Below, in pieces: positions 26,125-55,038 of a DNA stretch of 64,000 nucleotides; positions within the stretch are counted from its first letter, which is position 1, and each line of letters opens with the position of its first letter. Source of the DNA: Candidatus Nomurabacteria bacterium (GTDB lineage: Bacteria; Patescibacteriota; Saccharimonadia; Saccharimonadales; JAGQNJ01); assembly GCA_023898625.1 (NCBI GenBank), contig CP060231.1:148258-212257 (forward strand). The letters are read 5' to 3'. The notes under the pieces were generated by a model, which saw only the letters and a program-made list of their open reading frames with translations, made no database searches and was not told where the DNA came from. Position numbers and translations under genes: made by a program.

Positions 26125-26134
26125 ATTTCTATAA

Positions 26135-26251
26135 TTCGGCACCGTGCTATTTTCCCAGGGCTTGATGACCCAAGTATTGTAACCGCAGAGAGGCTTAACT
26201 GCTGTGTTCGGCATGGGAACAGGTGTTTCCCTCTCGCTATGGGCACCGACC
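26135..26251 (-). rRNA. rrf: 5S ribosomal RNA
   Basis: Reverse complement reads TCGGTGCCCATAGCGAGAGGGAAACACCTGTTCCCATGCCGAACACAGCAGTTAAGCCTCTCTGCGGT...GCACGGTGCCGAA. It carries the CCCATGCCGAACACAG and GTTAAGC 5S blocks, and the terminal helix pairs. Confidence 0.9.
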
Positions 26252-26756
26252 TGGTATTTTGTACCGTTTATATCTGTTTCCAGCAAAGCTAAAACTCTGA
26301 TATAAGCTCTGAGTAAATCGCTTCATCAGTAACGCTCGTCACTCGCTTCTCGCTACTTCCTTGCGCTTCATCTCAGTACAAAAATCCAGGACTGATGTCC
26401 AAATTACATTTTGCATGATAGATTGTTAACAAACACGGATATGTACACGTTGTGTGATACACACCAATAACTAGCCAATTGTCCATATTTTCTAAAGTCA
26501 CACCTCTGTTAAATTACTTTAACATTGATTGTGGCTTTAGTTCATAAAAAGTCGATGGATCTATTAGTACGCTTTGGCTGAATGTATTGCTACACGTACA
26601 CCTTGCGCCTATCAACCTGATCGTCTTTCAGGGATCTCCATAGGGAAATGCAATCTTGGGATTAGTTTCGCGCTTAATATGCTTTCAGCGCTTATCTAGA
26701 CCGCACTTAGCTACCCAGCAATGCCTGTAGGTCAGACAACTGGTACACCAGCGGTG

Positions 26757-26789
<33 letters not shown>

Positions 26790-26825
26790 TTCCCTCACAT
26801 TTCCTATTGTCCACATCGGATATAA

Positions 26826-26859
<34 letters not shown>

Positions 26860-26887
26860 ACGTACCTCTTTAACCGGCGAACAGCCG

Positions 26888-26918
<31 letters not shown>

Positions 26919-26977
26919 AGATGAGCCGACATCGAGGTGCCAAACAGCGCCGTCTATGTGAACTATTGGGCGCTATA

Positions 26978-27010
<33 letters not shown>

Positions 27011-27688
27011 TGCGTTGCCGATTCCACACTCATATACATAATGTATGGACAACGGGTCACTTACTCCCACTTTCGTGCCTGCTTGGCTTGTAGGCCTCAC
27101 AGTCAAGCTGGCTTATGCGTATGCACTATCACTACGATTTCCATCCGTAGCTAGCCAACCTTTGAACGCCTCCGCTACTCTTTAGGAGGCAACCGCCCCA
27201 GTTAAACTACCCACCAGACACTGTCCTCGAACCGGATAACGGTCCAAGTAAGAACAAAGTAACAACAAGGGTGGTATTTCACTGAAGACTCCACCATCGC
27301 TAGCGCGTTGGCTTCATAGTCTCCCACCTATGCTACACATGTTGTCACCCAGCTCAATGTCAAGCTGTAGTAAAGCTCCACGGGGTCTTTTCGTCCTGAT
27401 GCGGACAGACGGCATCTTTACCGCCAATGCACTTTCACCGAGTCCCTTCTTGAGACAGTACCCATATCATTACTCCATTCGTGCGGGTCAGAACTTACCT
27501 GACAAGGAATTTCGCTACCTTAGGACGGTTATAGTTACCGCCGCCGTTCACTGGGGCTTCAGTTCGCACCGTGAAGCGCTCCCCTTAACCTTCCAGCACC
27601 GGGCAGGAGTCAGCCCCTATACATCCACTTTCGTGTTAGCAGAGACCTGTGTTTTTGGTAAACAGTTGCTTGGGTTCTTTCGCTGCGG

Positions 27689-27835
27689 CCCCGTCACCAT
27701 ACTTACAAGTCGGTTAACGAAGCACAAGCTTCCAGAATTAATTTGTTTTGTCTCGATTTATCTCGATAGAATCATATATTTTAACTCTATTAATCTTGAA
27801 AACTTGGCTAGTCACTTATAAACATAGTGACGGGG
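27689..27835 (-). other. 23S insertion/expansion at the helix-63-equivalent site (about 147 nt, AT-rich)
   Basis: Bounded by CCCCGTCACCATA / TATGGTGACGGGG-type pairing (rc: GCCCCGTCACTATG...TATGGTGACGGGGC). Located between the conserved CCGTAACTT...AGG and CAACTGTTTACCAAAAACACAG blocks, where E. coli has about 50 nt. Confidence 0.8.
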
Positions 27836-28848
27836 CAGACCTTATCCCTAAGTTACGGTCGCTGTATTGCCGAGTTCCTTGACGAAGAATCACTCGTACA
27901 CCTTGGTCTTCTCGACCTGAGCACCTGTGTCGGTTTGCGGTACGGGCGGCCATAGACACACGCTTGGAAGCTTTTCTAGTCAGTACTTTCACAAGAATCA
28001 AGCCCGTAAGGGCCCTTTCATTCCCACTTATTAAGGTGGTTAGACGGGTATAACCATGAACCCGCTCTTACTAATATACCGCGCACTCCAAGCAATCTAT
28101 AACCGGTACAGGAATATTAACCTGTTGTCCATCGCCTACGCTACGCGCCTCGGCTTAGGCCCGACTAACCCTGGGACGATTACCGTGGCCCAGGAAACCT
28201 CGCTCTTTCGGTGGGCAGGATTCTCACCTGCCTTATGGTTACTCATTCCAGCATTCTCACTTGATACCACTCCACCAGACCTCGCAGTCTGACTTCAGCG
28301 CTGATATCAACGCTCCTCTACCACTGTACAAAGTACAGTCCACAGCTTCGGTAATACACTTAGCCCCGTTACATTTTCCGCGCGGGATCTCTTGACGAGT
28401 GAGCTGTTACGCACTCTTTAAATGAATGGCTGCTTCTAAGCCAACATCCTCGTTGTCCAAGAAATCCTACCTCGTTTCCCACTTAGTGTATATTTAGGGA
28501 CCTTAGCTGGTGGTCTGGGCTGTTTCCCTTTTGAGCGTGGAGCTTAGCCCCCACGTTCTAACTGCCGTAGTTCCACATTCCGTATTCGTAGTTTGTCAAG
28601 GGTGGGTAATCTTGCGACCCCCAGTCCGAAACAGAGCTCTACCCCAGAATGCTACCGTACGACGCTAGCCCTAAAGCTATTTCGAGGAGAACCAGCTATC
28701 TCCAGGTTCGATTGGCATTTCACCGCTAACCACAGGTCATCCGGGCGTGTTGCAACTCGCTACGGTTCGGTCCTCCACGCAGTTTTACCTGCGCTTCAAC
28801 CTGCCCATGGTTAGGTCACCTGGTTTCGGGTCTACTCCTATATACTCT

Positions 28849-29010
28849 AGGCATATCCTCGCTGGACAAAATATGTCTGTGAGCACAGATCACAAGGTTT
28901 TGACTTTGTAAAAGTTTTTTAACGTATTGACTTATACGTTTCAAAAATTTTACTTTGTCAAAATCAGTGTTATGCGTTCACAGGCTGTTTTGCTCAGTGA
29001 GGATATGCCT
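28849..29010 (-). other. 23S intervening-sequence-like insertion at the helix-25 site (about 160 nt)
   Basis: Inserted between GAATAGGGCG and AGTAGACCCGAAACC. Closed by AGGCATATCCTC...GAGGATATGCCT. An internal long hairpin is GACTTTGTAAAAGTTTTTT...AAAAATTTTACTTTGTC. Confidence 0.8.
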
Positions 29011-29439
29011 TCGCCCTATTCAGGCTCGCTTTCACTACGCCTCCGCCAAATGGCTTAAGCTCGCATATAAGAATAACTCGCTGGATCGTTCTACAAAAAG
29101 CACGCCATCACCCCGAAGGGCTCTGACTCCTTGTACGCACATAATTTCAGGTTCTATTTCACTCCCCTCCCGGGGTTCTTTTCGCCTTTCCCTCACGGTA
29201 CTTGTTCACTATCGATCATAAGATATATTTAGCCTTGGAACGTGGTCGTCCCAGATTCAAACAGGGTTTCTCGTGTCCCGTTCTACTCGACAATAATAAA
29301 TATAAGGTTGCGAATACTTAACATACCGGGCTATCACCGTCTTTGGCTAGTCTTTCCAGACTATTCTGCTCGCTTCGCAATTTCTGACCTTATGCAAGTT
29401 CGTGGTAGCACTTGCTTCCACTACGGATTTCCTAAATAA

Positions 29440-29640
29440 TTTAGGCTCTCCGTAGTAGTTGTTTACTATGTCACAACCCCTGTAATACATTCGTCTACCA
29501 ACTTATCGGATATAAGACAAAACCTACGGTTTTTTCTTATCGCGCCAGGCAAAAAATGCGATTTTTGCTTGGGCTTATCTTATTCCCTATAACAGGACCA
29601 TAAGCTTAATCCCATATCCGAAGTATTAAAGGTTTGGGCT
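29440..29640 (-). other. 23S domain I insertion (about 170 nt extra)
   Basis: Lies between GTAGTGGCGAGCGAAACTGGAATAGCCCAAACC and TCTGGAAAGACTAGCCAAAGACGGTGATAGCCCGGTA (rc). E. coli has about 80 nt here, this gene about 250. Confidence 0.75.
29513..29578 (-). repeat. Two-hairpin module, copy inside the 23S domain I insertion
   Basis: Plus strand TAAGACAAAACCTACGGTTTTTTCTTATCGCGCCAGGCAAAAAATGCGATTTTTGCTTGGGCTTATC aligns with 34232-34295. Confidence 0.7.
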
Positions 29641-30122
29641 ATTCCAGTTTCGCTCGCCACTACTCCCAGAATCATTGGTTATTTTCTCTTCCTCGAGGTA
29701 CTAAGATGTTTCAGTTCCCCCGGTTCCCTCTTCTTACCCTATGTGTTCAGATAAGAGTTACTAGGCATGACCCCAGTAGGGTTTCCCCATTCGGAAATCT
29801 TCGGTTCAAAGCTTGTTTGACAGCTCCCCGAAGCTTATCGCAGTCTACTACGTCCTTCATCGGTATCTTATGTCAAGGCATCCATTGTGTGCGCTTGAGT
29901 AACTTTTTATGAATATATGTATGCATTTGGCTAGTTATTGGTTAGTACCAATAAATGCCGTGCTTGTCTTTACATCTATCTCTAAATCTCTAAAATCTTG
30001 ATTGTTAAGTTTCTAAACTCACGCTAATCATACCCATACAATAATGATTATGATCGTTTCTTGAGTTTACATTTGAAGTCGATTCCTCTAGACCTCTGAT
30101 CTAAACTCAAGATAGCTATACA

Positions 30123-30151
30123 AGTTTATCAACTAAAACAGAGGTAGTCAA
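30123..30151 (-). promoter_or_regulatory. Sigma-70-like promoter candidate for the 23S-5S unit
   Basis: Minus strand TTGACT (30151-30146), 17-nt spacer, TAAACT (30128-30123), about 180 nt upstream of the 23S processing stem. Confidence 0.4.
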
Positions 30152-30220
30152 CCATATTTTAATGTAATCATTACCACACTATAACTACTGTTAATTACTT
30201 TTCTAGCACGACTCCTGGAA

Positions 30221-31378
30221 TTATTGCTCCCAACAAGCCCAAAGTATTTTTTCTGTAACTGCATAGTTTTCAGGCTTCTTCATTGCCATTCTACCCTTAC
30301 TCTTAGCATCCGGACAAGCACCAGTTGCATTACCTCTGTATTCTACCTGACCAACCCACAATCCTTTGTTCGTGGCTGGATTCAAATCATCGCATTCACC
30401 GTATTGCTGACATTCTTCATTAAGAATCCCGTCTGGCACACACAGACCTGGTTTACAATAGACAATACCAGTAGGTTCTGTCACCTGTTGGTCTGTTAAT
30501 TCCACGCCATTCTTGCTAATGGCAGTTAACCCTCTTTGGTGAGCTTGATAATAATACTCACGATACAGTCGTAATGAATGAGCTTCAGTAATATTAAAGG
30601 TTTTATCGTTTCCGTAACTATTAATCTGATCGCCCTCAACACCATCACAGCCAATTTTTTTTGCTACATCAAGACGAGCCCACATAATCGGTGCCCAATA
30701 TTGCCAAGAATTTTCTTTAATATCCATCCAATACTCACCCTCAAAAGTACCGCCGGCTGAATCTTCTGATGTTCCACCAATAACATCTACATTTGCATAT
30801 GATGCTGGCCCATTGTATGGAATACTCCCCCGGCTATTATTTCCTGAGCCCCACTTTCCAGGAAATAGCGAAGCATCTGGCTCATATGTCTCATAAGCCC
30901 CTATATCCATATAACAAATAACCTTTTTTCCAGATGACTTAAGAGCTGTAAATGCATCTGCATTCTTGCCTTTTGGCCAAGTTACTGTTCTTGTCTCTCC
31001 ATTAGCCCAAGTTACCGTTTGGGTAGTATTGCCTGGGATTGCATCAGTAAGATCAATATCCCACATATCGAAGCGATTAAGATTAGCTGCATCTACGGTA
31101 ATACCACCTTCAAGAACCCACTGCCAGCGGGTATTTTGAGCTGGTTTCCACCAAGAGCTTTGAGATGCTTGTCCAAATTTTATAGCTTTTCCGCCAGAAG
31201 CAGACGAATCTGCAATTACTAATTTACTGTCAGCCCCTTTTTCTGCTTCAATTTCAATCGAATATGTTCCAGCTTTAGCGACTAAAATGGCAATAAATCC
31301 AATTATGGCAATGAATAATATTACAAAAATCTTCTTATTTTCTATTAATTTTCTAAGGCTAATTTTAACTTTTTTCAT
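30221..31378 (-). CDS. Secreted/membrane-anchored glycoside hydrolase family 114 (endo-alpha-1,4-polygalactosaminidase-like)
   Basis: 385-aa ORF with N-terminal TM helix. GH114 blocks RWQWVL, MWDIDL, KKVICYMDIGAYETYEPD, GEYWMDIK and GCDGVEGDQINSY. Confidence 0.78.
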   Translation of the reverse strand: MKKVKISLRKLIENKKIFVILFIAIIGFIAILVAKAGTYSIEIEAEKGADSKLVIADSSASGGKAIKFGQASQSSWWKPAQNTRWQWVLEGGITVDAANLNRFDMWDIDLTDAIPGNTTQTVTWANGETRTVTWPKGKNADAFTALKSSGKKVICYMDIGAYETYEPDASLFPGKWGSGNNSRGSIPYNGPASYANVDVIGGTSEDSAGGTFEGEYWMDIKENSWQYWAPIMWARLDVAKKIGCDGVEGDQINSYGNDKTFNITEAHSLRLYREYYYQAHQRGLTAISKNGVELTDQQVTEPTGIVYCKPGLCVPDGILNEECQQYGECDDLNPATNKGLWVGQVEYRGNATGACPDAKSKGRMAMKKPENYAVTEKILWACWEQ

Positions 31379-31505
31379 AATCTCTATGACTAGCTTTATT
31401 ACCGAAATTTATTTATCGTATAATAATATAGTATCACGCTCAAGCTAAAATAGTCACTACTATTGTTTTAGTGGTCAAATTGATGTAAAATTACTCGAGT
31501 AATTT

Positions 31506-31582
31506 GGGGCGTTAGCTCAGTTGGCTAGAGCACCTGCTTTGCAAGCAGGGGGTCCGGGGTTCGAGTCCCCGACGCTCCACCA
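31506..31582 (+). tRNA. tRNA-Ala (anticodon UGC), CCA encoded
   Basis: GGGGCGTTAGCTCAGTTGGCTAGAGCACCTGCTTTGCAAGCAGGGGGTCCGGGGTTCGAGTCCCCGACGCTCCACCA. Cloverleaf folds, with the G3:U70 Ala identity pair. Confidence 0.95.
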
Positions 31583-31601
31583 AATTACTATTTATGATTT
31601 A

Positions 31602-31678
31602 GGGCGATTAGCTCAGCTGGTTAGAGCGCGTCACTGATAATGACGAGGTCGGAGGTTCAAGTCCCTCATCGCCCACCA
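31602..31678 (+). tRNA. tRNA-Ile (anticodon GAU), CCA encoded
   Basis: GGGCGATTAGCTCAGCTGGTTAGAGCGCGTCACTGATAATGACGAGGTCGGAGGTTCAAGTCCCTCATCGCCCACCA. Cloverleaf folds with one A-C mismatch in the T stem. Confidence 0.92.
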
Positions 31679-31687
31679 TTTAAAGAA

Positions 31688-31708
31688 GCCACCCTAGGGT
31701 GGTTTTTT
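31688..31708 (+). terminator. Rho-independent terminator after tRNA-Ile
   Basis: GCCACC-CTAG-GGTGGT hairpin followed by TTTTTT. Confidence 0.7.
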
Positions 31709-31710
31709 AA

Positions 31711-31862
31711 ATGGTCGGTGCTGTGGCTTGAATATTCGACACTTGAGGTCGGAGGGGAGAACTGCCTGTGGCAGTTTGGACGGCAATCTTCTCTTGAAAA
31801 CTTGTTTTCAAAGATGAAGTTGTGGGGTCGCCAGAGGTGACCGAGTCCCTCATCGCCCACCA
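31711..31862 (+). ncRNA. tRNA-Ile-derived pseudo-tRNA carrying a conserved ~95-nt three-hairpin module (copy 1)
   Basis: GAGGTCGGAGG (identical to the tRNA-Ile variable/T-stem region), then the module, then GTCCCTCATCGCCCACCA (identical to the tRNA-Ile 3' end). The module aligns with the reverse complement of 54569-54700. A plus-strand terminator follows at 31885-31908. Confidence 0.45.
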
Positions 31863-31884
31863 TCAAATGGATTTTTTAAGAATT

Positions 31885-31908
31885 GTCGCTTTCACGAGCG
31901 ATTTTTTT
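31885..31908 (+). terminator. Rho-independent terminator downstream of the tRNA-like element
   Basis: GTCGCT-TTCACG-AGCGAT hairpin followed by TTTTTTT. Confidence 0.6.
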
Positions 31909-31947
31909 CTTTTGAATTTAGAAGTAGCCTGATCGGGTCACCTAGAC

Positions 31948-33045
31948 TTACAGCCCAAAGCATTCCATTGACTGTGCCAAATGGGTTTTGCCAGTTTCAA
32001 TTTTCTCACGCATAAAGTCGGTAGGTTCCCAAGAATAACGACGCAAACGCAGTGTCATTTTTGACACAACATAGCGCAAGCGCAGTAACTCAAACTTGTC
32101 ATCAAAGTCGTTAGACTTTTGGACAACCGAAAAATAACCGTCCAAGAAACCTTTTAGACGCTCAGGTTCAAAAAAGGTACTCCAACAAGCAATGTCACTC
32201 TCTGGTATTCCGCCAACACACTCGTCCCAATCCAAAATACCCGTAATACCCTGCCCATCAGTCAATAAGTTCCAGTCAGCAAAATCATTGTGTACCAAAA
32301 TCGCTTCGTTCGAGTCTAGTAAAGGATTGCTATCAAATAATTTTGCTATTGCTTCGGCTTGTTGCTCGGTCAATATGCCGTATTGCTTCAATACATCAAT
32401 ATTAAATGGCAAACCTGCGCGGACGGCTTCGCCAAAAGTCTGGTGTAAACCAACCAATTCGCCATTTTTGGCTTTTTCATTATCAAATGCACCAAAACCA
32501 CTAACTTTTATTTGATGTAGTCGTGCCATCTCCTTGCCAATTTCTGGCAATAGTTTGGCCTCGTCGTCAGGATGTGTTTCCAACCATTTTTTAATTGCGT
32601 ACCCAGGCAATTTATCTATCACTTGAAAAGCAAAATCATCTCCGCCTTCATAATCGTGAATAGCGAGCGTGTCATAACTAGGCGAACCTGCTTCTTTGGC
32701 TTTTCGTGCGGCGACCGCTTCGGCATGGAAGTAGCCGTTTTTGACACCTCTAGGGTGGCAACGGATCACTACTTCTTTGCCAGTCGCCAAGCGACCAACT
32801 CGCACAGAATTTACATTGCCCAGATTTGTTTGTGCATCTAGGTCTAGTGGTTCAATATCGGTCAAACCGTCACGCCCGAGCACTCCATTTACTTTATTGA
32901 GCAGTTCATCATCTGTAAAATATCGATGACGGTCTGCCCAGATATGTCCAGCCTGTTCAGGCTCAATAGCTCGGTCAGTCTGCCAGTAAAAGACATCGTG
33001 CCTGTCGGCAATTTGGGCGTTTATTTTATCCATATCAAGATTCAT
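31948..33045 (-). CDS. Aminoglycoside/choline-kinase-type phosphotransferase (APH family) protein
   Basis: 365-aa ORF. The catalytic loop LVHNDFADWNLL and GILDWDE are the Brenner / DxD motifs of APH-like kinases. GC looks higher than neighbouring genes. Confidence 0.75.
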   Translation of the reverse strand: MNLDMDKINAQIADRHDVFYWQTDRAIEPEQAGHIWADRHRYFTDDELLNKVNGVLGRDGLTDIEPLDLDAQTNLGNVNSVRVGRLATGKEVVIRCHPRGVKNGYFHAEAVAARKAKEAGSPSYDTLAIHDYEGGDDFAFQVIDKLPGYAIKKWLETHPDDEAKLLPEIGKEMARLHQIKVSGFGAFDNEKAKNGELVGLHQTFGEAVRAGLPFNIDVLKQYGILTEQQAEAIAKLFDSNPLLDSNEAILVHNDFADWNLLTDGQGITGILDWDECVGGIPESDIACWSTFFEPERLKGFLDGYFSVVQKSNDFDDKFELLRLRYVVSKMTLRLRRYSWEPTDFMREKIETGKTHLAQSMECFGL

Positions 33046-33054
33046 ATTTACAAC

Positions 33055-33855
33055 TCATTTCAAAGTAAACCCGCCGTCAACAGCAAGAATTTGCCCAGTT
33101 ATAAAAGAAGCATCGTCTGATAGTAGAAAAGCAACAGCGGAAGCTATTTCTTCGGGCTTTCCCATGCGTTTAATGATAGAAAGGTCTGTTGTCCAGCTAG
33201 GGTCTTCGCCTGTGCTTTTGGTCAGGGGAGTATCGACCAAACCGGGGGCAACCGCATTGACACGAACAAGCGGCTCATTGTACTTGCGAGCAAACGATTT
33301 TGTAAGTGAGATAATACCCGCTTTGGTAGACGAGTAAATTACTCCGTAAGGCTCGCCAATTATGCCGTCAACTGATGTTAGCGCAACAATAGCACCGTCT
33401 TTAGATGTTTCTTTGATTAGCGCACCAAGTAGCTTTAAGGTGCTGAAAGTACCTTTCAGATTTACATCTATAGTGCGACTTATATTTTCGTCTGTAATGT
33501 CGTCAATTCCAGCGGGGAGTGGTAGTACCCCCGCATTTGCTACAAGCAAATCAAGATGACCAAACTCATCTTTTATATGTTGCCTCACTCGTTCCAGCTC
33601 AGCTTTATTGGAGATGTCGGCAGCAACGAAGCGGACTCTTGCTAAGTCATTAAATTGCTCCAAAACCGATTTATCTGATTCACTTGGCGAATTCAGAATT
33701 ACGGTAGCACCGTCATTAAAAAGTCTGTGTGCTATCGCTAAGCCGATGCCTTGTGTTGAACCTGTTACTAACGCTACTTTATTTAGAAAACTCACATCCC
33801 AATTATAACACATTTCAACCCTGTTATAATTCACAAACATAATCATGAGAGCCAT
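33055..33855 (-). CDS. Short-chain dehydrogenase/reductase (FabG-like SDR)
   Basis: VALVTGSTQGIGLAIA (TGxxxGxG), NAG and the YSSTKAG catalytic motif. The true start is probably the internal Met near 33813. Confidence 0.85.
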   Translation of the reverse strand: MALMIMFVNYNRVEMCYNWDVSFLNKVALVTGSTQGIGLAIAHRLFNDGATVILNSPSESDKSVLEQFNDLARVRFVAADISNKAELERVRQHIKDEFGHLDLLVANAGVLPLPAGIDDITDENISRTIDVNLKGTFSTLKLLGALIKETSKDGAIVALTSVDGIIGEPYGVIYSSTKAGIISLTKSFARKYNEPLVRVNAVAPGLVDTPLTKSTGEDPSWTTDLSIIKRMGKPEEIASAVAFLLSDDASFITGQILAVDGGFTLK

Positions 33856-34231
33856 CTACAAAATAATCAACCTCAGAAAACCATCTATAACTAAAAGGAA
33901 TTCGGCGAAAAAGGATCTAAAAGATACAAAAAAGACTTATTCAGAAAGGCTTGTGTTTTTTTAGTTATTCTACATATTGAATTTGTACAACGTTATAAAA
34001 TCTACCAAATCCTCATAATAATCTGTCTGAATACCTTTAACTTTAAGAATACTTGATTTTAAAAAAGAGCCCTCTCGCAAATGGGCTCTTTTTAGTTATT
34101 TAAAAACTGGGTAGTGCAATTATCAACGCAAGATCTGGTTAGCACTGCGGATCGTCCTGCTTGCAGGAAAATACATTGTCAGTACTGATCACAATGTATC
34201 GATATCGACCTAGCTATCACGCTTCGCTAAT

Positions 34232-34295
34232 GAAACAAACCTACGGTTTTTCTCATCACGCCGGCAAAATGGTTCACATTTTGTCGGGTTGCTCT
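34232..34295 (-). repeat. Two-hairpin module, copy in the 16S 3' trailer
   Basis: Plus strand GAAACAAACCTACGGTTTTTCTCATCACGCCGGCAAAATGGTTCACATTTTGTCGGGTTGCTC aligns with 29513-29578. Both hairpins are retained with compensatory changes. Confidence 0.7.
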
Positions 34296-34338
34296 TTCCC
34301 CTTTTAAAAGGAACAAAACGGATGCTAGAAACTCCCTA

Positions 34339-35837
<1,499 letters not shown>

Positions 35838-51230: not shown

Positions 51231-51232
51231 GT

Positions 51233-51672
51233 ATGCCAGCCTATCTATAAGCCGGGTTCTGTTATTACTAGTCATCTATCTAGTCTACAAATTGCTTTGC
51301 AGATCAAGCGGGTTTCACGCGCATATCTAGCAGGATACTAATGTACAAAACGCACAATATGATACGCTACCTTGCAACAGACAGGGTTTACCTTTTGGTT
51401 ATGTCGCCATAATCAACTGTAGGCTCTTACCCTACTCTTTTCAACTTTACCTCGTATCCATTACTGGTATTCTACTCAATATATAACCGATATCAGCAAA
51501 GGATACGAGGCCGTCTTGTTTCTGTGGCACTTTCCCTAGAGTTACCTCTGGTTGCTGTTAGCAACTGCCCTTCCTTATGTTGCCCGGACTTTCCTCTCTG
51601 TACTTATGACCATCAAGCTAATTCCATCATTAATAGCCTTAAGTACAGAGCGACTAGTCGATAACCTGGCAG
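51233..51672 (-). ncRNA. rnpB: RNase P RNA (bacterial type A)
   Basis: Reverse complement contains CAGAGAGGAAAGTCCGGGCAACA (P4 5' strand), GGGAAAGTGCCACAGAAA, GGGTAAGAGCC and ACAGAACCCGGCTTATAGATAGGCTGGC (P4 3' strand plus P1 pairing with the 5' GCCAGGTTATC). Confidence 0.9.
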
Positions 51673-51678
51673 TGATGA

Positions 51679-52482
51679 TTATACCAGATTTTGATTAGCA
51701 TCTAGTATTCGATTTACTTCTGCATCTGCCAATTTATTATATTCTCGAGGTACGTGGGTAAAATCAACACTACGGAATTTATAGGTAAGCTCTTTAACAG
51801 CTCTATAAACCCCAAGAAGATCTTTGTTTTTTACTTTAAAGATACCTTTCATTTGGTTTATAACTAGCATACTATCCATATAAACATGAACAATTTCAGC
51901 CCCTAATTGATGAGCTCTCTCCAACCCCAATCGCAGAGAATGATATTCTGCTTGATTGTTGGTAGTTATATTTAAAAACTCTCCGTTTGTTTCAATCACA
52001 TGATTGTTCATATCGATTATCACGTATCCACTAGCTGAAGGACCTGGATTACCTCTAGAGCCACCATCCCCAAAAAGCTGTATTTCGACATATTTCGTTG
52101 TAGCATTGTCATCATTAGATTTTGCATTAATCTGCACATTTCTTGGCGTGAAGTCGAATTCAATTACCTTTACATGAGTATCCTCGTTTACGATATCACC
52201 GTAAAATAATGCCATTTGTTCATATAGCTCGGAAGTAGAGCCAAATTTTTCAAAATTTCCTTGTTCAAGATCCAGGTCGCCAATCCTTTGCAATGATACC
52301 TTATTAACACTGGCTACTCCTATATCAATCCATGTCTCTGGTTGATCTTCTCGTACTTTATCAATTACAACTATTTTGTCATCGACAGTTATACTTTTAT
52401 CGTCATCTATTCTTAGTGTAGCTGTCTGAATTCCATTTTTAATATTATCCGCTTCAATATGATTAAACTTTAGGCTTTTCAT
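51679..52482 (-). CDS. ASCH-like N-terminal domain fused to an RNase H (RNase HI-type) domain
   Basis: 267-aa ORF. The C-terminal half GDGGSRGNPGPSASGYVI...NNQAEYHSLRLGLE...VYMDSMLVINQM...REYNKLADAEVN has the DEDD RNase H pattern. Confidence 0.7.
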   Translation of the reverse strand: MKSLKFNHIEADNIKNGIQTATLRIDDDKSITVDDKIVVIDKVREDQPETWIDIGVASVNKVSLQRIGDLDLEQGNFEKFGSTSELYEQMALFYGDIVNEDTHVKVIEFDFTPRNVQINAKSNDDNATTKYVEIQLFGDGGSRGNPGPSASGYVIIDMNNHVIETNGEFLNITTNNQAEYHSLRLGLERAHQLGAEIVHVYMDSMLVINQMKGIFKVKNKDLLGVYRAVKELTYKFRSVDFTHVPREYNKLADAEVNRILDANQNLV

Positions 52483-54521: not shown

Positions 54522-54546
54522 AGAAAAAACGGCGCATTTGCGCCGC
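54522..54546 (-). terminator. Rho-independent terminator of the tRNA-Pro transcription unit
   Basis: GGCGCA-TT-TGCGCC hairpin (54531-54544), followed on the minus strand by GTTTTTTCTTT. Confidence 0.7.
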
Positions 54547-54568: not shown

Positions 54569-54717
54569 TGGTCAGGGTAAGAGGACTTGAACCTGCGACC
54601 TCACGGTCACCTCCGGCGACCCCGAAACTTCTGCCTTGACAGCATAGCTGTCAGGTGAAGATTTCCTTGCAAACTGCCACTGGCAGTTCTCACCCCAGCC
54701 GTAAAAGGGGTCCCTAT
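54569..54717 (-). ncRNA. Degenerate tRNA-Pro-like gene carrying the ~95-nt three-hairpin module in its anticodon loop (copy 2)
   Basis: Reverse complement: TAGGGACCCCTTTTACGGCTGGGG-[module]-CCGTGAGGTCGCAGGTTCAAGTCCTCTTACCCTGACCA. The last 26 nt are identical to tRNA-Pro. No D-arm. There is no terminator between it and tRNA-Pro. Confidence 0.45.
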
Positions 54718-54730
54718 GAAAATTTATAAA

Positions 54731-54807
54731 TGGTCAGGGTAAGAGGACTTGAACCTCCGATCTCCGGACCCCCAGCCCGGCGCTTTAGCCAACTAAGCTA
54801 TACCCTG
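54731..54807 (-). tRNA. tRNA-Pro (anticodon GGG), CCA encoded
   Basis: Reverse complement CAGGGTATAGCTTAGTTGGCTAAAGCGCCGGGCTGGGGGTCCGGAGATCGGAGGTTCAAGTCCTCTTACCCTGACCA. Cloverleaf folds, with the C1:G72 pair and G37 typical of tRNA-Pro. Confidence 0.9.
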
Positions 54808-54823
54808 TTATCCATTTATAAAT

Positions 54824-54866
54824 CTTCATGGGATGAATGCGTGCTAGCCAACTGCGCCACACCCTG
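54824..54866 (-). pseudogene. Orphan tRNA 5' fragment (acceptor 5' strand + D-arm + short hairpin)
   Basis: Reverse complement CAGGGTGTGGCGCAGTTGGCTAGCACGCATTCATCCCATGAAG. The acceptor strand could pair with the TACCCTG at 54573-54579. No T-arm or 3' acceptor strand follows. Confidence 0.5.
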
Positions 54867-55038
54867 ATAAGACAAAAGTCAAGCTATCACCCTTGATTAA
54901 TCTGATTTATCTAGGTGGGTCTTCGCACACATAAACCACGATTTATATGATATAAAAATCCCTATCAGATGGTGTTAGATAATCATAGACGGATGATAAC
55001 CTGACAAACAATATTATACCCCTATACCAGCATCCTTT

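Follow-up and report, generated by a model that had tools for sequence, protein, structure and literature searches.

Why should an intact tRNA-Ile gene be followed by a broken copy of its own 3′ half, with a folded insert sitting where the T-loop should be, and what is that insert? The window in which the question arises is a stretch of 64,000 nucleotides (nt) from Candidatus Nomurabacteria bacterium, a member of the Saccharimonadales in the GTDB lineage (assembly GCA_023898625.1, contig CP060231.1, positions 148,258 to 212,257). It holds two modules of about 86 nt, each made of three hairpins, at 31756-31841 (+) and 54606-54692 (-); we refer to the module as M. An unfiltered covariance model run over the 64 kb found no third copy besides those two. 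The first-pass annotation, made from the letters alone, spoke of copy 1 of 2; that count stands for this window but not beyond it, since the family is large. In our preferred view M is probably mobile and recombinogenic, a selfish element that does not move autonomously and survives in remnants of tRNA genes.

The features around the first copy are as follows.

31506-31582 (+): tRNA-Ala(TGC), just 5′ of tRNA-Ile (ARAGORN)
31602-31678 (+): intact tRNA-Ile(GAT) (ARAGORN; Rfam tRNA, 67.1 bits)
31689-31708 (+): terminator 1, a hairpin and T-run (GCCACCCTAGGGTGGTTTTTT) after the intact tRNA-Ile, read from the sequence
31712-31740 (+): antisense arm, a diverged reverse complement of tRNA-Ile ~47-77
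31745-31755 (+): short sense flank (GAGGTCGGAGG), tRNA-Ile 44-54, variable loop and 5′ strand of the T-stem
31756-31841 (+): M copy 1, 86 nt (covariance model, 99.8 bits, E 6e-19)
31842-31862 (+): long sense flank, a copy of the rest of the tRNA-Ile T-loop, the 3′ strand of the T-stem, the acceptor 3′ strand and CCA
31885-31909 (+): terminator 2, an intrinsic-terminator-like hairpin and T-run 3′ of the unit (terminator scan)

The stretch 31711-31862 thus opens with the tRNA-Ile 3′ half in inverted copy, runs through a loop to tRNA-Ile 44-53 and M, and closes with tRNA-Ile 56-77; judged from its sequence, it is a truncated, apparently nonfunctional tRNA-Ile copy with M in the T-loop. The three hairpins of M lie at ~31759-31777, ~31783-31823 and 31826-31842. 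Much of what the first-pass annotation described here held up: its sequences are where it placed them, the 5′ end is the tRNA-Ile variable loop and T-stem (11/11 identity over 31745-31755), and the 3′ end is that of tRNA-Ile with its CCA (31844-31862, 19/19 identity to positions 59-77, the last being the 3′-terminal nucleotide). The blocks shared by the two copies are likewise real. Two of them, GAGAACTGCCNGTGGCAGTTTG and GGGGTCGCCRGAGGTGACCG, occur twice each in the window, where shuffles expect none, and both copies can be aligned through M and onward ('AAATGGA..AGAATTG', then a terminator hairpin). The statement that TTCAA had been replaced by ~95 nt needs correction: just T54 and T55 are replaced, with an additional A57G, and M is 31756-31841. 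The supposed closing stem (TCGG/CCGA versus ACGG/CCGT) is no feature of the family. RNAalifold predicts no such helix; ACGG/CCGT in copy 2 is the anticodon stem of the old tRNA-Pro, and TCGG/CCGA in copy 1 is tRNA variable-loop and T-loop sequence. For terminator 1, the terminator scan lists the palindromic stem on the minus strand only.

The antisense arm at 31712-31740, overlooked at first pass, holds TGG opposite CCA and CTTGAA opposite the T-loop. Its local alignment to the tRNA-Ile 3′ half scores 24 (shuffles, 11.8 +/- 2.4; p = 0.0004), while the sense control scores 12, at background level. The arm is truly inverted, because the T-loops TTCAAGT and TTTGAGT are not palindromic. In the minimum-free-energy fold of the unit the arm is paired with the 3′ end, and the short sense flank at 31745-31755 is predicted to form a hairpin with 31735-31740.

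That M is far more than a pair of similar sequences in one genome became apparent from a pattern scan of one genome per species across 185,579 species, which returned 64 loci: 63 are real, and one is a chance match in Streptomyces. Nearly all the real loci carry the label Saccharibacteria or Saccharimonadales, and a few are short contigs in other bins. A covariance model built from 65 copies and searched in the scan loci (threshold E < 1e-6) yielded 76 M copies, including divergent ones outside the search pattern; the homolog search that the first-pass annotation had proposed therefore returned many further copies. Identity between copies averages 0.84 within a genome versus 0.74 between genomes, and copies at different tRNAs of one genome are up to 97-99% identical. 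In such pairs identity ceases exactly at TGAGAAC... and ...GGTGAC, and these ends therefore define the unit. The family is large and lineage-restricted. Rfam gave no match to M (window at gathering scores; the locus at E up to 10; 12 further loci), in keeping with the earlier remark that no described RNA class has this architecture. Viral contigs in IMG/VR, examined by three pattern scans and the covariance model, gave just chance matches inside coding sequence; BLAST of phage and plasmid collections gave no M match, and we found no description of the element in the literature.

The family has some diversity of its own. Members of a longer subfamily, ~105 nt in length, differ in their middle part and have hairpin 3 extended (L060 6674-6778; L052 5652-5756 (-); L019 688-779 (-)); the one in L052 is inserted the other way round, with the T-stem of an M-bearing tRNA-Met fragment on one side and the acceptor strand on the other. 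In L063 (7219-7575) three diverged modules stand in tandem, each after a copy of AAGAGCTCTAGAGGG, and precede an uninterrupted hairpin, CTCTAGAGGGGGTGGGCACCGCTAGAGG, that is not a tRNA; the target is therefore not strictly tRNA. Rfam reported no RNA gene in that region.

The fold of M is maintained. RNAalifold applied to a MAFFT alignment gave three hairpins; of their 32 pairs, 19 show compensatory double changes. When all 76 copies were aligned, 97.9% of cells were paired and double changes occurred at 30/32 pairs; this alignment was fitted to the model, so that its pair counts lean toward the structure, and the MAFFT-based result agrees with it. The covariation score was 0.505 versus 0.138 in shuffles (0/500 reached it) and at most 0.08 when partners were slid. 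Even the stems that the search pattern had fixed covary in divergent copies (AATGTCC/GGACATT, GTTGTGCC/GGCACAAC, GGTCCGCC/GGCGGAT). Both the middle hairpin and the helix CAA(T)CTTC/GAAGTTG had first been noticed to differ in a compensatory way between the two window copies, and such differences extend to the 76. Hairpin 1 begins about 4 nt from the left end of M, and hairpin 3 closes at the right end. The structure is also strand-specific: at the copy 1 locus the model scores 99.8 bits on the sense strand and 14.5 bits on the opposite one. Hairpin 3 has an invariant G-T, and G-T mismatches exceed A-C, which places the fold on the tRNA-sense strand. Predicted folding energies are -33.5 kcal/mol (z -3.65) for sense-strand RNA, -18.4 kcal/mol (z -4.40) for sense-strand single-stranded DNA and -25.3 kcal/mol (z -3.07) for RNA of the complementary strand. 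M is under selection for pairing, as the first-pass annotation had argued; it had named a lack of homologs or of covariation as the contrary outcome, and that outcome fails because many covarying homologs exist.

Every copy with a tRNA gene within 300 nt (62/62) lies on the same strand as that gene; 40 are downstream of it and 22 are upstream, the median distance being 72 nt, and 21 isoacceptors are represented among these 62. The flanks of M repeat parts of the neighboring tRNA, and the copies are always partial. The repeated segments measure 21-37 nt, and in L020 the repeat adds at least 23 nt of upstream flank. Two arrangements recur. In the downstream (type B) units, the intact tRNA and usually a terminator are followed by the tRNA 3′ part as a diverged reverse complement, then by a short loop and 8-13 nt in sense orientation, M, the remaining tRNA to CCA, and a terminator. 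The upstream (type A) units run from a tRNA 5′ part through M to ~8-12 nt of the next tRNA sequence, its reverse complement, a spacer and the intact tRNA; they stand directly 5′ of that tRNA without an intervening terminator, whereas type B units end in one. The fold-back arm is found on the side that faces the intact gene: in 19 type B and 8 type A units M directly adjoins a perfectly paired hairpin there (6 bp or longer), and on the opposite side it does so in none of either type, against a background of perfect stems of at least 7 bp at 1.5% of random positions. The antisense arm itself contains no copy of M. The flanking tRNA pieces bear extra, pseudogene-type lesions, and several tRNA genes have units on both sides or in arrays. 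The first-pass option of a tRNA mimic, cut by RNase P and with a free CCA at its end, finds no support: only the 5′ tRNA part is present in 22 copies, and the CCA of copy 1 is predicted to pair with the upstream TGG. In one contig (L065, 1520-1700) the tRNA-Ala 5′ half, to the anticodon loop, is fused to the antisense arm of a tRNA-Ile unit, and the contig has no intact tRNA-Ala or tRNA-Ile; the fusion may reflect a deletion, or else it is an artefact of assembly.

Both junctions were mapped onto the neighboring tRNA, and 32 copies could be scored. M occupies fixed positions, at which it replaces exactly 2 nt in 27/32 copies, a rule that the first-pass annotation had missed. The left flank of M terminates in RG, mostly GG. 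The positions are these.

T-loop, 54-55: TT replaced (GT at 53-54 in tRNA-Glu); most type B copies
Anticodon arm, 38-39: GC, AG or TG replaced; tRNA-Pro(GGG) and tRNA-Leu(TAG/CAG) only
Positions 26-27: CA or CG replaced; type A copies
D-loop after G18G19: TT replaced; L052 3694-3784, read by eye

Such loop and junction positions belong to the same classes as those of archaeal tRNA introns and split tRNAs (PMC4033280), and the restriction of the anticodon-arm cases to tRNA-Pro(GGG) and tRNA-Leu(TAG/CAG) would fit an element that moves as RNA. One may imagine an intron-like mobile that undergoes reverse splicing or ligation to tRNA halves and then reverse transcription, which makes the snap-back arm, followed by recombination beside the tRNA gene. 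Partial copies and fold-backs are typical of cDNA artefacts. We nevertheless think this route quite unlikely. The antisense arm has no M in it, unlike what simple snap-back copying of a chimeric RNA would give, and a simple cDNA snap-back was rejected on the same ground. No reverse transcriptase is linked to the copies, no ribozyme or intron family matches them, and removal of M seldom repairs the tRNA: with 12 fillers (nothing or 11 short ones) applied in silico to the 76 copies, a junction-spanning tRNA was obtained in 1/76, a tRNA-Tyr (L031) that still has no acceptor 3′ strand. Group II introns, moreover, are reported absent from Patescibacteria (PMC13011429). The tRNA intron, another first-pass option, is set aside by that single restoration among flanks that are always partial, together with the absence of any Rfam match to an intron or ribozyme, whether at gathering scores or with E allowed up to 10. 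No bulge-helix-bulge was evident, checked by eye at the tRNA-Pro 37/40 junction only.

A more familiar explanation would be that the tRNA fragments are ordinary attachment (att) remnants, with M as the terminal arm of a deleted island. Partial tRNA copies beside an intact one are the classic sign of integration into tRNA genes (PMC9897764), and M loci resemble att remnants in having a direct repeat of part of a tRNA near the intact gene, junctions in the anticodon loop and T-loop, and possible arrays. Those two loops are reportedly the preferred crossover sublocations (Williams is said to have described them in 2002). The remaining evidence makes the explanation very improbable. No integrase, transposase or reverse transcriptase was detected near either window copy (open reading frames, and Pfam on the neighbors), and clustering of open reading frames across the 63 loci revealed housekeeping synteny only, with no shared protein family, integrase or conserved partner gene. 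The bounded DNA is ~100-190 nt and whole units are ~170-200 nt, with no open reading frame in either; M interrupts the repeated tRNA segment instead of adjoining it, and 22 copies carry 5′ tRNA parts, which are as common at M loci as a two-sided process predicts. Nor is M found in IMG/VR or in the phage and plasmid collections, and M itself is kept by covariation. Unlike att remnants, the segment at an M locus is shorter than 200 nt, has an inverted tRNA arm, and contains a conserved 86-nt module inside the repeated tRNA segment in place of 2 nt. An integrase scar, as the first-pass annotation had also considered, is largely ruled out on these grounds.

The second window locus, which lies on the opposite strand from the first, can be compared with empty sites in relatives; it is listed here in its own 5′ to 3′ direction.

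54840-54866 (-): tRNA-Pro(GGG) 5′ fragment, positions 1-26, of the resident or ancestral gene (by comparison with empty-site orthologs in L074 and L085)
54808-54839 (-): X1, inverted repeat flank on the 5′ side of the intact tRNA-Pro
54731-54807 (-): intact tRNA-Pro(GGG), a replacement, of another sequence lineage (ARAGORN, Rfam)
54703-54730 (-): X2, inverted repeat flank on the 3′ side of the intact tRNA-Pro
54693-54702 (-): short sense flank (ACGGCTGGGG), resident tRNA-Pro positions 28-37
54606-54692 (-): M copy 2, 87 nt, in place of resident tRNA-Pro 38-39 (covariance model, 99.8 bits; junction table)
54569-54605 (-): resident tRNA-Pro positions 40-77, the final 26 nt converted to the replacement-tRNA sequence
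54529-54546 (-): ancestral terminator of the tRNA-Pro locus (terminator scan)

The gene order here (miaA, a hypothetical gene, a metallo-beta-lactamase fold, L28, an M50 protease, tRNA-Pro, queA) is kept in relatives. Two of them, L085 (M50 protein 95% identical) and L074 (88%), have a single intact tRNA-Pro and no M; the outer flanks of L074 are the same as those of the window, and L085 shares the upstream flank. Compared with these empty sites, the window locus reads as positions 1-26 with the ancestral upstream flank retained, 31 nt of new sequence, an intact tRNA-Pro of another lineage, 28 nt of new sequence, and then the resident remainder in the order 28-37, M, 40-77 and the ancestral terminator. 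The intact tRNA-Pro has a D-arm and anticodon stem unlike those of the orthologous tRNA in L074 and L085. The last 26 nt of the resident 40-77 piece equal the new tRNA (BLAST, 26/26), and the unconverted ancestral 3′ end is present in strains L086, L089 and L091. Because the ancestral tRNA lies broken up but in order, comparison of these sequences shows that the M-bearing segment is what is left of the resident gene and that the intact tRNA-Pro is a replacement, a relationship not recognized at first pass. The replacement is bordered by inverted repeats of ~20 bp, which extend into the acceptor stem (TCCCATGAAGATTTATAAATGG / CCATTTATAAATTTTCATAGGGA), and it looks like a discrete tRNA cassette inserted at old tRNA position 26/27.

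In relatives whose M50 protein is 86%, 85% and 84% identical, the tRNA-Pro is inverted and M is absent. A single tRNA-Pro inverted relative to the flanking genes is seen in L075 (3328-3404), L082 (2300-2375) and L083 (2338-2414), and in L077 the tRNA-Pro is absent from the site. Contigs L072 and L073 (M50 94% identical) end ~27-30 nt into the tRNA-Pro, a break that would be expected if the 5′ part of the tRNA is duplicated at that site; M units probably cause assembly breaks at tRNA genes. An empty-site ortholog of the tRNA-Ile locus, sought via its kinase-like neighbor, was not obtained, because either synteny has been lost or the contigs stop at the rRNA operon.

Within one species the locus varies both in the presence of M and as mosaics. 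Strains with a 100% identical M50 protein carry four structural variants: (i) the window form; (ii) the window form with the ancestral, unconverted 3′ end; (iii) a mosaic M followed by a fold-back and a second intact tRNA-Pro of ancestral type; and (iv) no M unit whatsoever. Elsewhere, fragment and intact tRNA differ by compensatory changes (L031, L004, L064), and in L041 the left and right flanks of M come from two different tRNAs. Such chimeric units show recombination through M.

This variation bears on what we consider a serious, if unlikely, rival, namely that M is a functional structured domain of a noncoding RNA, transcribed from duplicated tRNA promoters or up to tRNA terminators. Such an RNA would form a three-way junction held by the sense and antisense tRNA arms and might act as a decoy, a sensor or a processing element. 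The strong, strand-specific covariation and the constant co-orientation with tRNA genes are what this explanation would predict; type B units have terminators, type A units stand directly 5′ of an intact tRNA with no terminator between, and the antisense arm is predicted to clamp both flanks. Yet the presence of M varies among near-identical strains and close relatives, and so patchy a distribution makes an essential role less likely. Genomes differ in the number of copies and in the host tRNA, there is no conserved partner gene, the flanking tRNA pieces carry lesions of the pseudogene type, and the copy 1 unit lies behind terminator 1, with no promoter detected between it and M.

If M is a selfish mobile element, as we prefer to think, machinery encoded elsewhere would recognize it in the form of a folded single strand, either DNA or RNA, and its entry into tRNA sequence would be at the defined positions. 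An insertion into the sole functional copy of a tRNA would be lost from the cell, and M would therefore persist only in tRNA-gene remnants, which would arise by partial duplication or replacement of tRNA genes. Copies would then recombine with one another and keep the loci in flux. The sense-antisense-sense arrangement may come from replicative template switching, which is our best guess. Here we go beyond what the loci display: we infer transposition, rather than spread by recombination alone; a single-strand substrate; a trans-acting enzyme; and the origin of the fold-back arm and partial duplication. Of the possibilities raised at first pass, a mobile insertion that targets tRNA loops is the best fit.

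Several points weigh against this reading. None of the copies has a linked transposase, integrase or reverse transcriptase, and no autonomous version was found. Gene conversion instead of transposition could yield the near-identical copies within a genome. Among the copies, no M was caught in a complete tRNA gene and no fresh insertion event was seen. Covariation, co-orientation and nearby promoters or terminators fit a functional transcribed RNA as well, and we know of no transposition chemistry that the fold-back arm and the replacement of 2 nt would match. The evidence is wholly comparative. With regard to enzymes that act on single strands, no Y1 HUH transposase or RAYT was present within the fetched loci, a result that covers those loci and not whole genomes, no test having been aimed at such enzymes.

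Comparison with known systems places M as new among the small, structured, non-autonomous repeats, because it fails a defining test of each. RPE of Rickettsia, Correia, BOX, RUP, ERIC and REP/BIME are short noncoding multicopy folded repeats, and RPE can lie inside genes. Like them and like MITEs (miniature inverted-repeat transposable elements), M is short, noncoding, multicopy, lineage-restricted, geneless, strongly folded and patchy among strains; unlike them it has no terminal inverted repeats or target-site duplication, and it is confined to set tRNA positions with a fold-back copy of the target. A classical MITE was rejected, since the ends TGAGAAC.../...GGTGAC are not inverted repeats, target-site duplication is absent, and 2 nt are replaced in 27/32 copies. 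With IS200/IS605 elements, PATEs, and REPs with RAYT, M has in common a strand-specific fold, hairpins near both ends, a single orientation and the lack of target duplication. IS200/IS605 insertion neither deletes nor replaces target bases, and takes place behind a tetra- or pentanucleotide that is fixed. The hairpins at the two ends of M differ from each other, its left flank is just RG, and 2 target nucleotides are replaced, so that M does not fit an IS200/IS605-derived hairpin element either. The junctions give no support to a serine-recombinase 2-bp crossover or to hairpin-forming transposases.

RtT repeats, at the tyrT locus of Escherichia coli, are units 3′ of a tRNA gene, each with a copy of the tRNA 3′ end, and are confined to one enterobacterial locus. 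Type B units share that placement and that 3′-end copy, but there is no match in sequence or structure, and M is dispersed at fixed positions within tRNAs. Known tRNA-like RNAs (tmRNA, RtT, Y-RNA-like) were rejected, ARAGORN having found no tmRNA and Rfam no match. Among introns the nearest parallels are archaeal, where similar short sequences occur in different tRNAs at canonical and noncanonical positions as transposed tRNA introns and split tRNAs (PMC4033280). The split and intron-containing tRNA genes of Thermoproteales and Nanoarchaeum give complete tRNAs after splicing that depends on the bulge-helix-bulge, and the table in that review includes no bacterial split or multiple-intron tRNA genes (PMC4033280). 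As in those archaea, M is found in different tRNA species, with separate tRNA pieces, in ultrasmall symbiotic hosts; unlike archaeal introns, its flanks are incomplete (1/76 restorable) and an intact tRNA stands alongside. Group I introns of Patescibacteria occupy the anticodon loops of complete tRNA genes at 35/36, mostly without a homing endonuclease (PMC13011429). They too are tRNA insertions in the same phylum, but M is 86 nt, has no Rfam group I match, and lies at other positions in partial copies.

Other features of the window deserve a brief record. The rRNA genes are on the minus strand (26134-35837), and 16S and 23S stand 4.4 kb apart, the gap containing an SDR, an APH-like kinase and a GH114 glycoside hydrolase; between 16S and 23S, as usual, but inverted to the plus strand, lie tRNA-Ala and tRNA-Ile. 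The 23S match at 26543-29909 (-) spans 3367 nt versus a 2925-position model, and the RNase P RNA at 51232-51669 (-) is 438 nt versus 367 positions, extra sequence being present in both; Rfam reported no intron family in either match. At 51679-52482 (-), a 267-aa protein has ASCH and RNase H-like (RVT_3) domains, and in relatives it is conserved beside queA. Between the M50 protease gene and tRNA-Pro, at about 54880-55010 (-), a stretch of ~140 nt is conserved in relatives, with an invariant TATAAT upstream and a closing stem that varies in a compensatory manner (CAGGTTATCA/TGATAGCTTG versus TGGATCGTCG/CGACGATCCA). It has a weak match to 6S RNA (RF00013, 22 bits, E 0.007, under the gathering score) and is probably a divergent 6S RNA.

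Saccharibacteria have tiny genomes in which tRNA genes are mostly single-copy. Many of these genes are bordered by truncated copies with a conserved folded insert, and the loci differ among strains with identical neighboring proteins. The M family accounts for tRNA pseudogene calls and for assembly breaks at tRNA genes in these genomes; M is a marker for strain-level variation, and its covariance model is directly usable for annotation. Should M prove to be a functional RNA, it would constitute a widespread unannotated class. Should it be mobile, it would bring a new target rule (fixed tRNA positions, 2-nt replacement, fold-back of the target) and a new way in which genomes of the candidate phyla radiation are rearranged and their tRNA genes replaced. 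We also entertain, as an unlikely but consequential extension, a new mobile system aimed at tRNA that acts on a folded single strand and of which M may be the recognizable part; the replacement of 2 nt at set tRNA positions and the fold-back would both result from insertion by a chemistry not yet described (RNA or single-stranded DNA, possibly catalytic). If this were true, such a system, together with mobile replacement tRNA genes, would drive a selfish turnover of tRNA genes in ultrasmall symbiotic bacteria.

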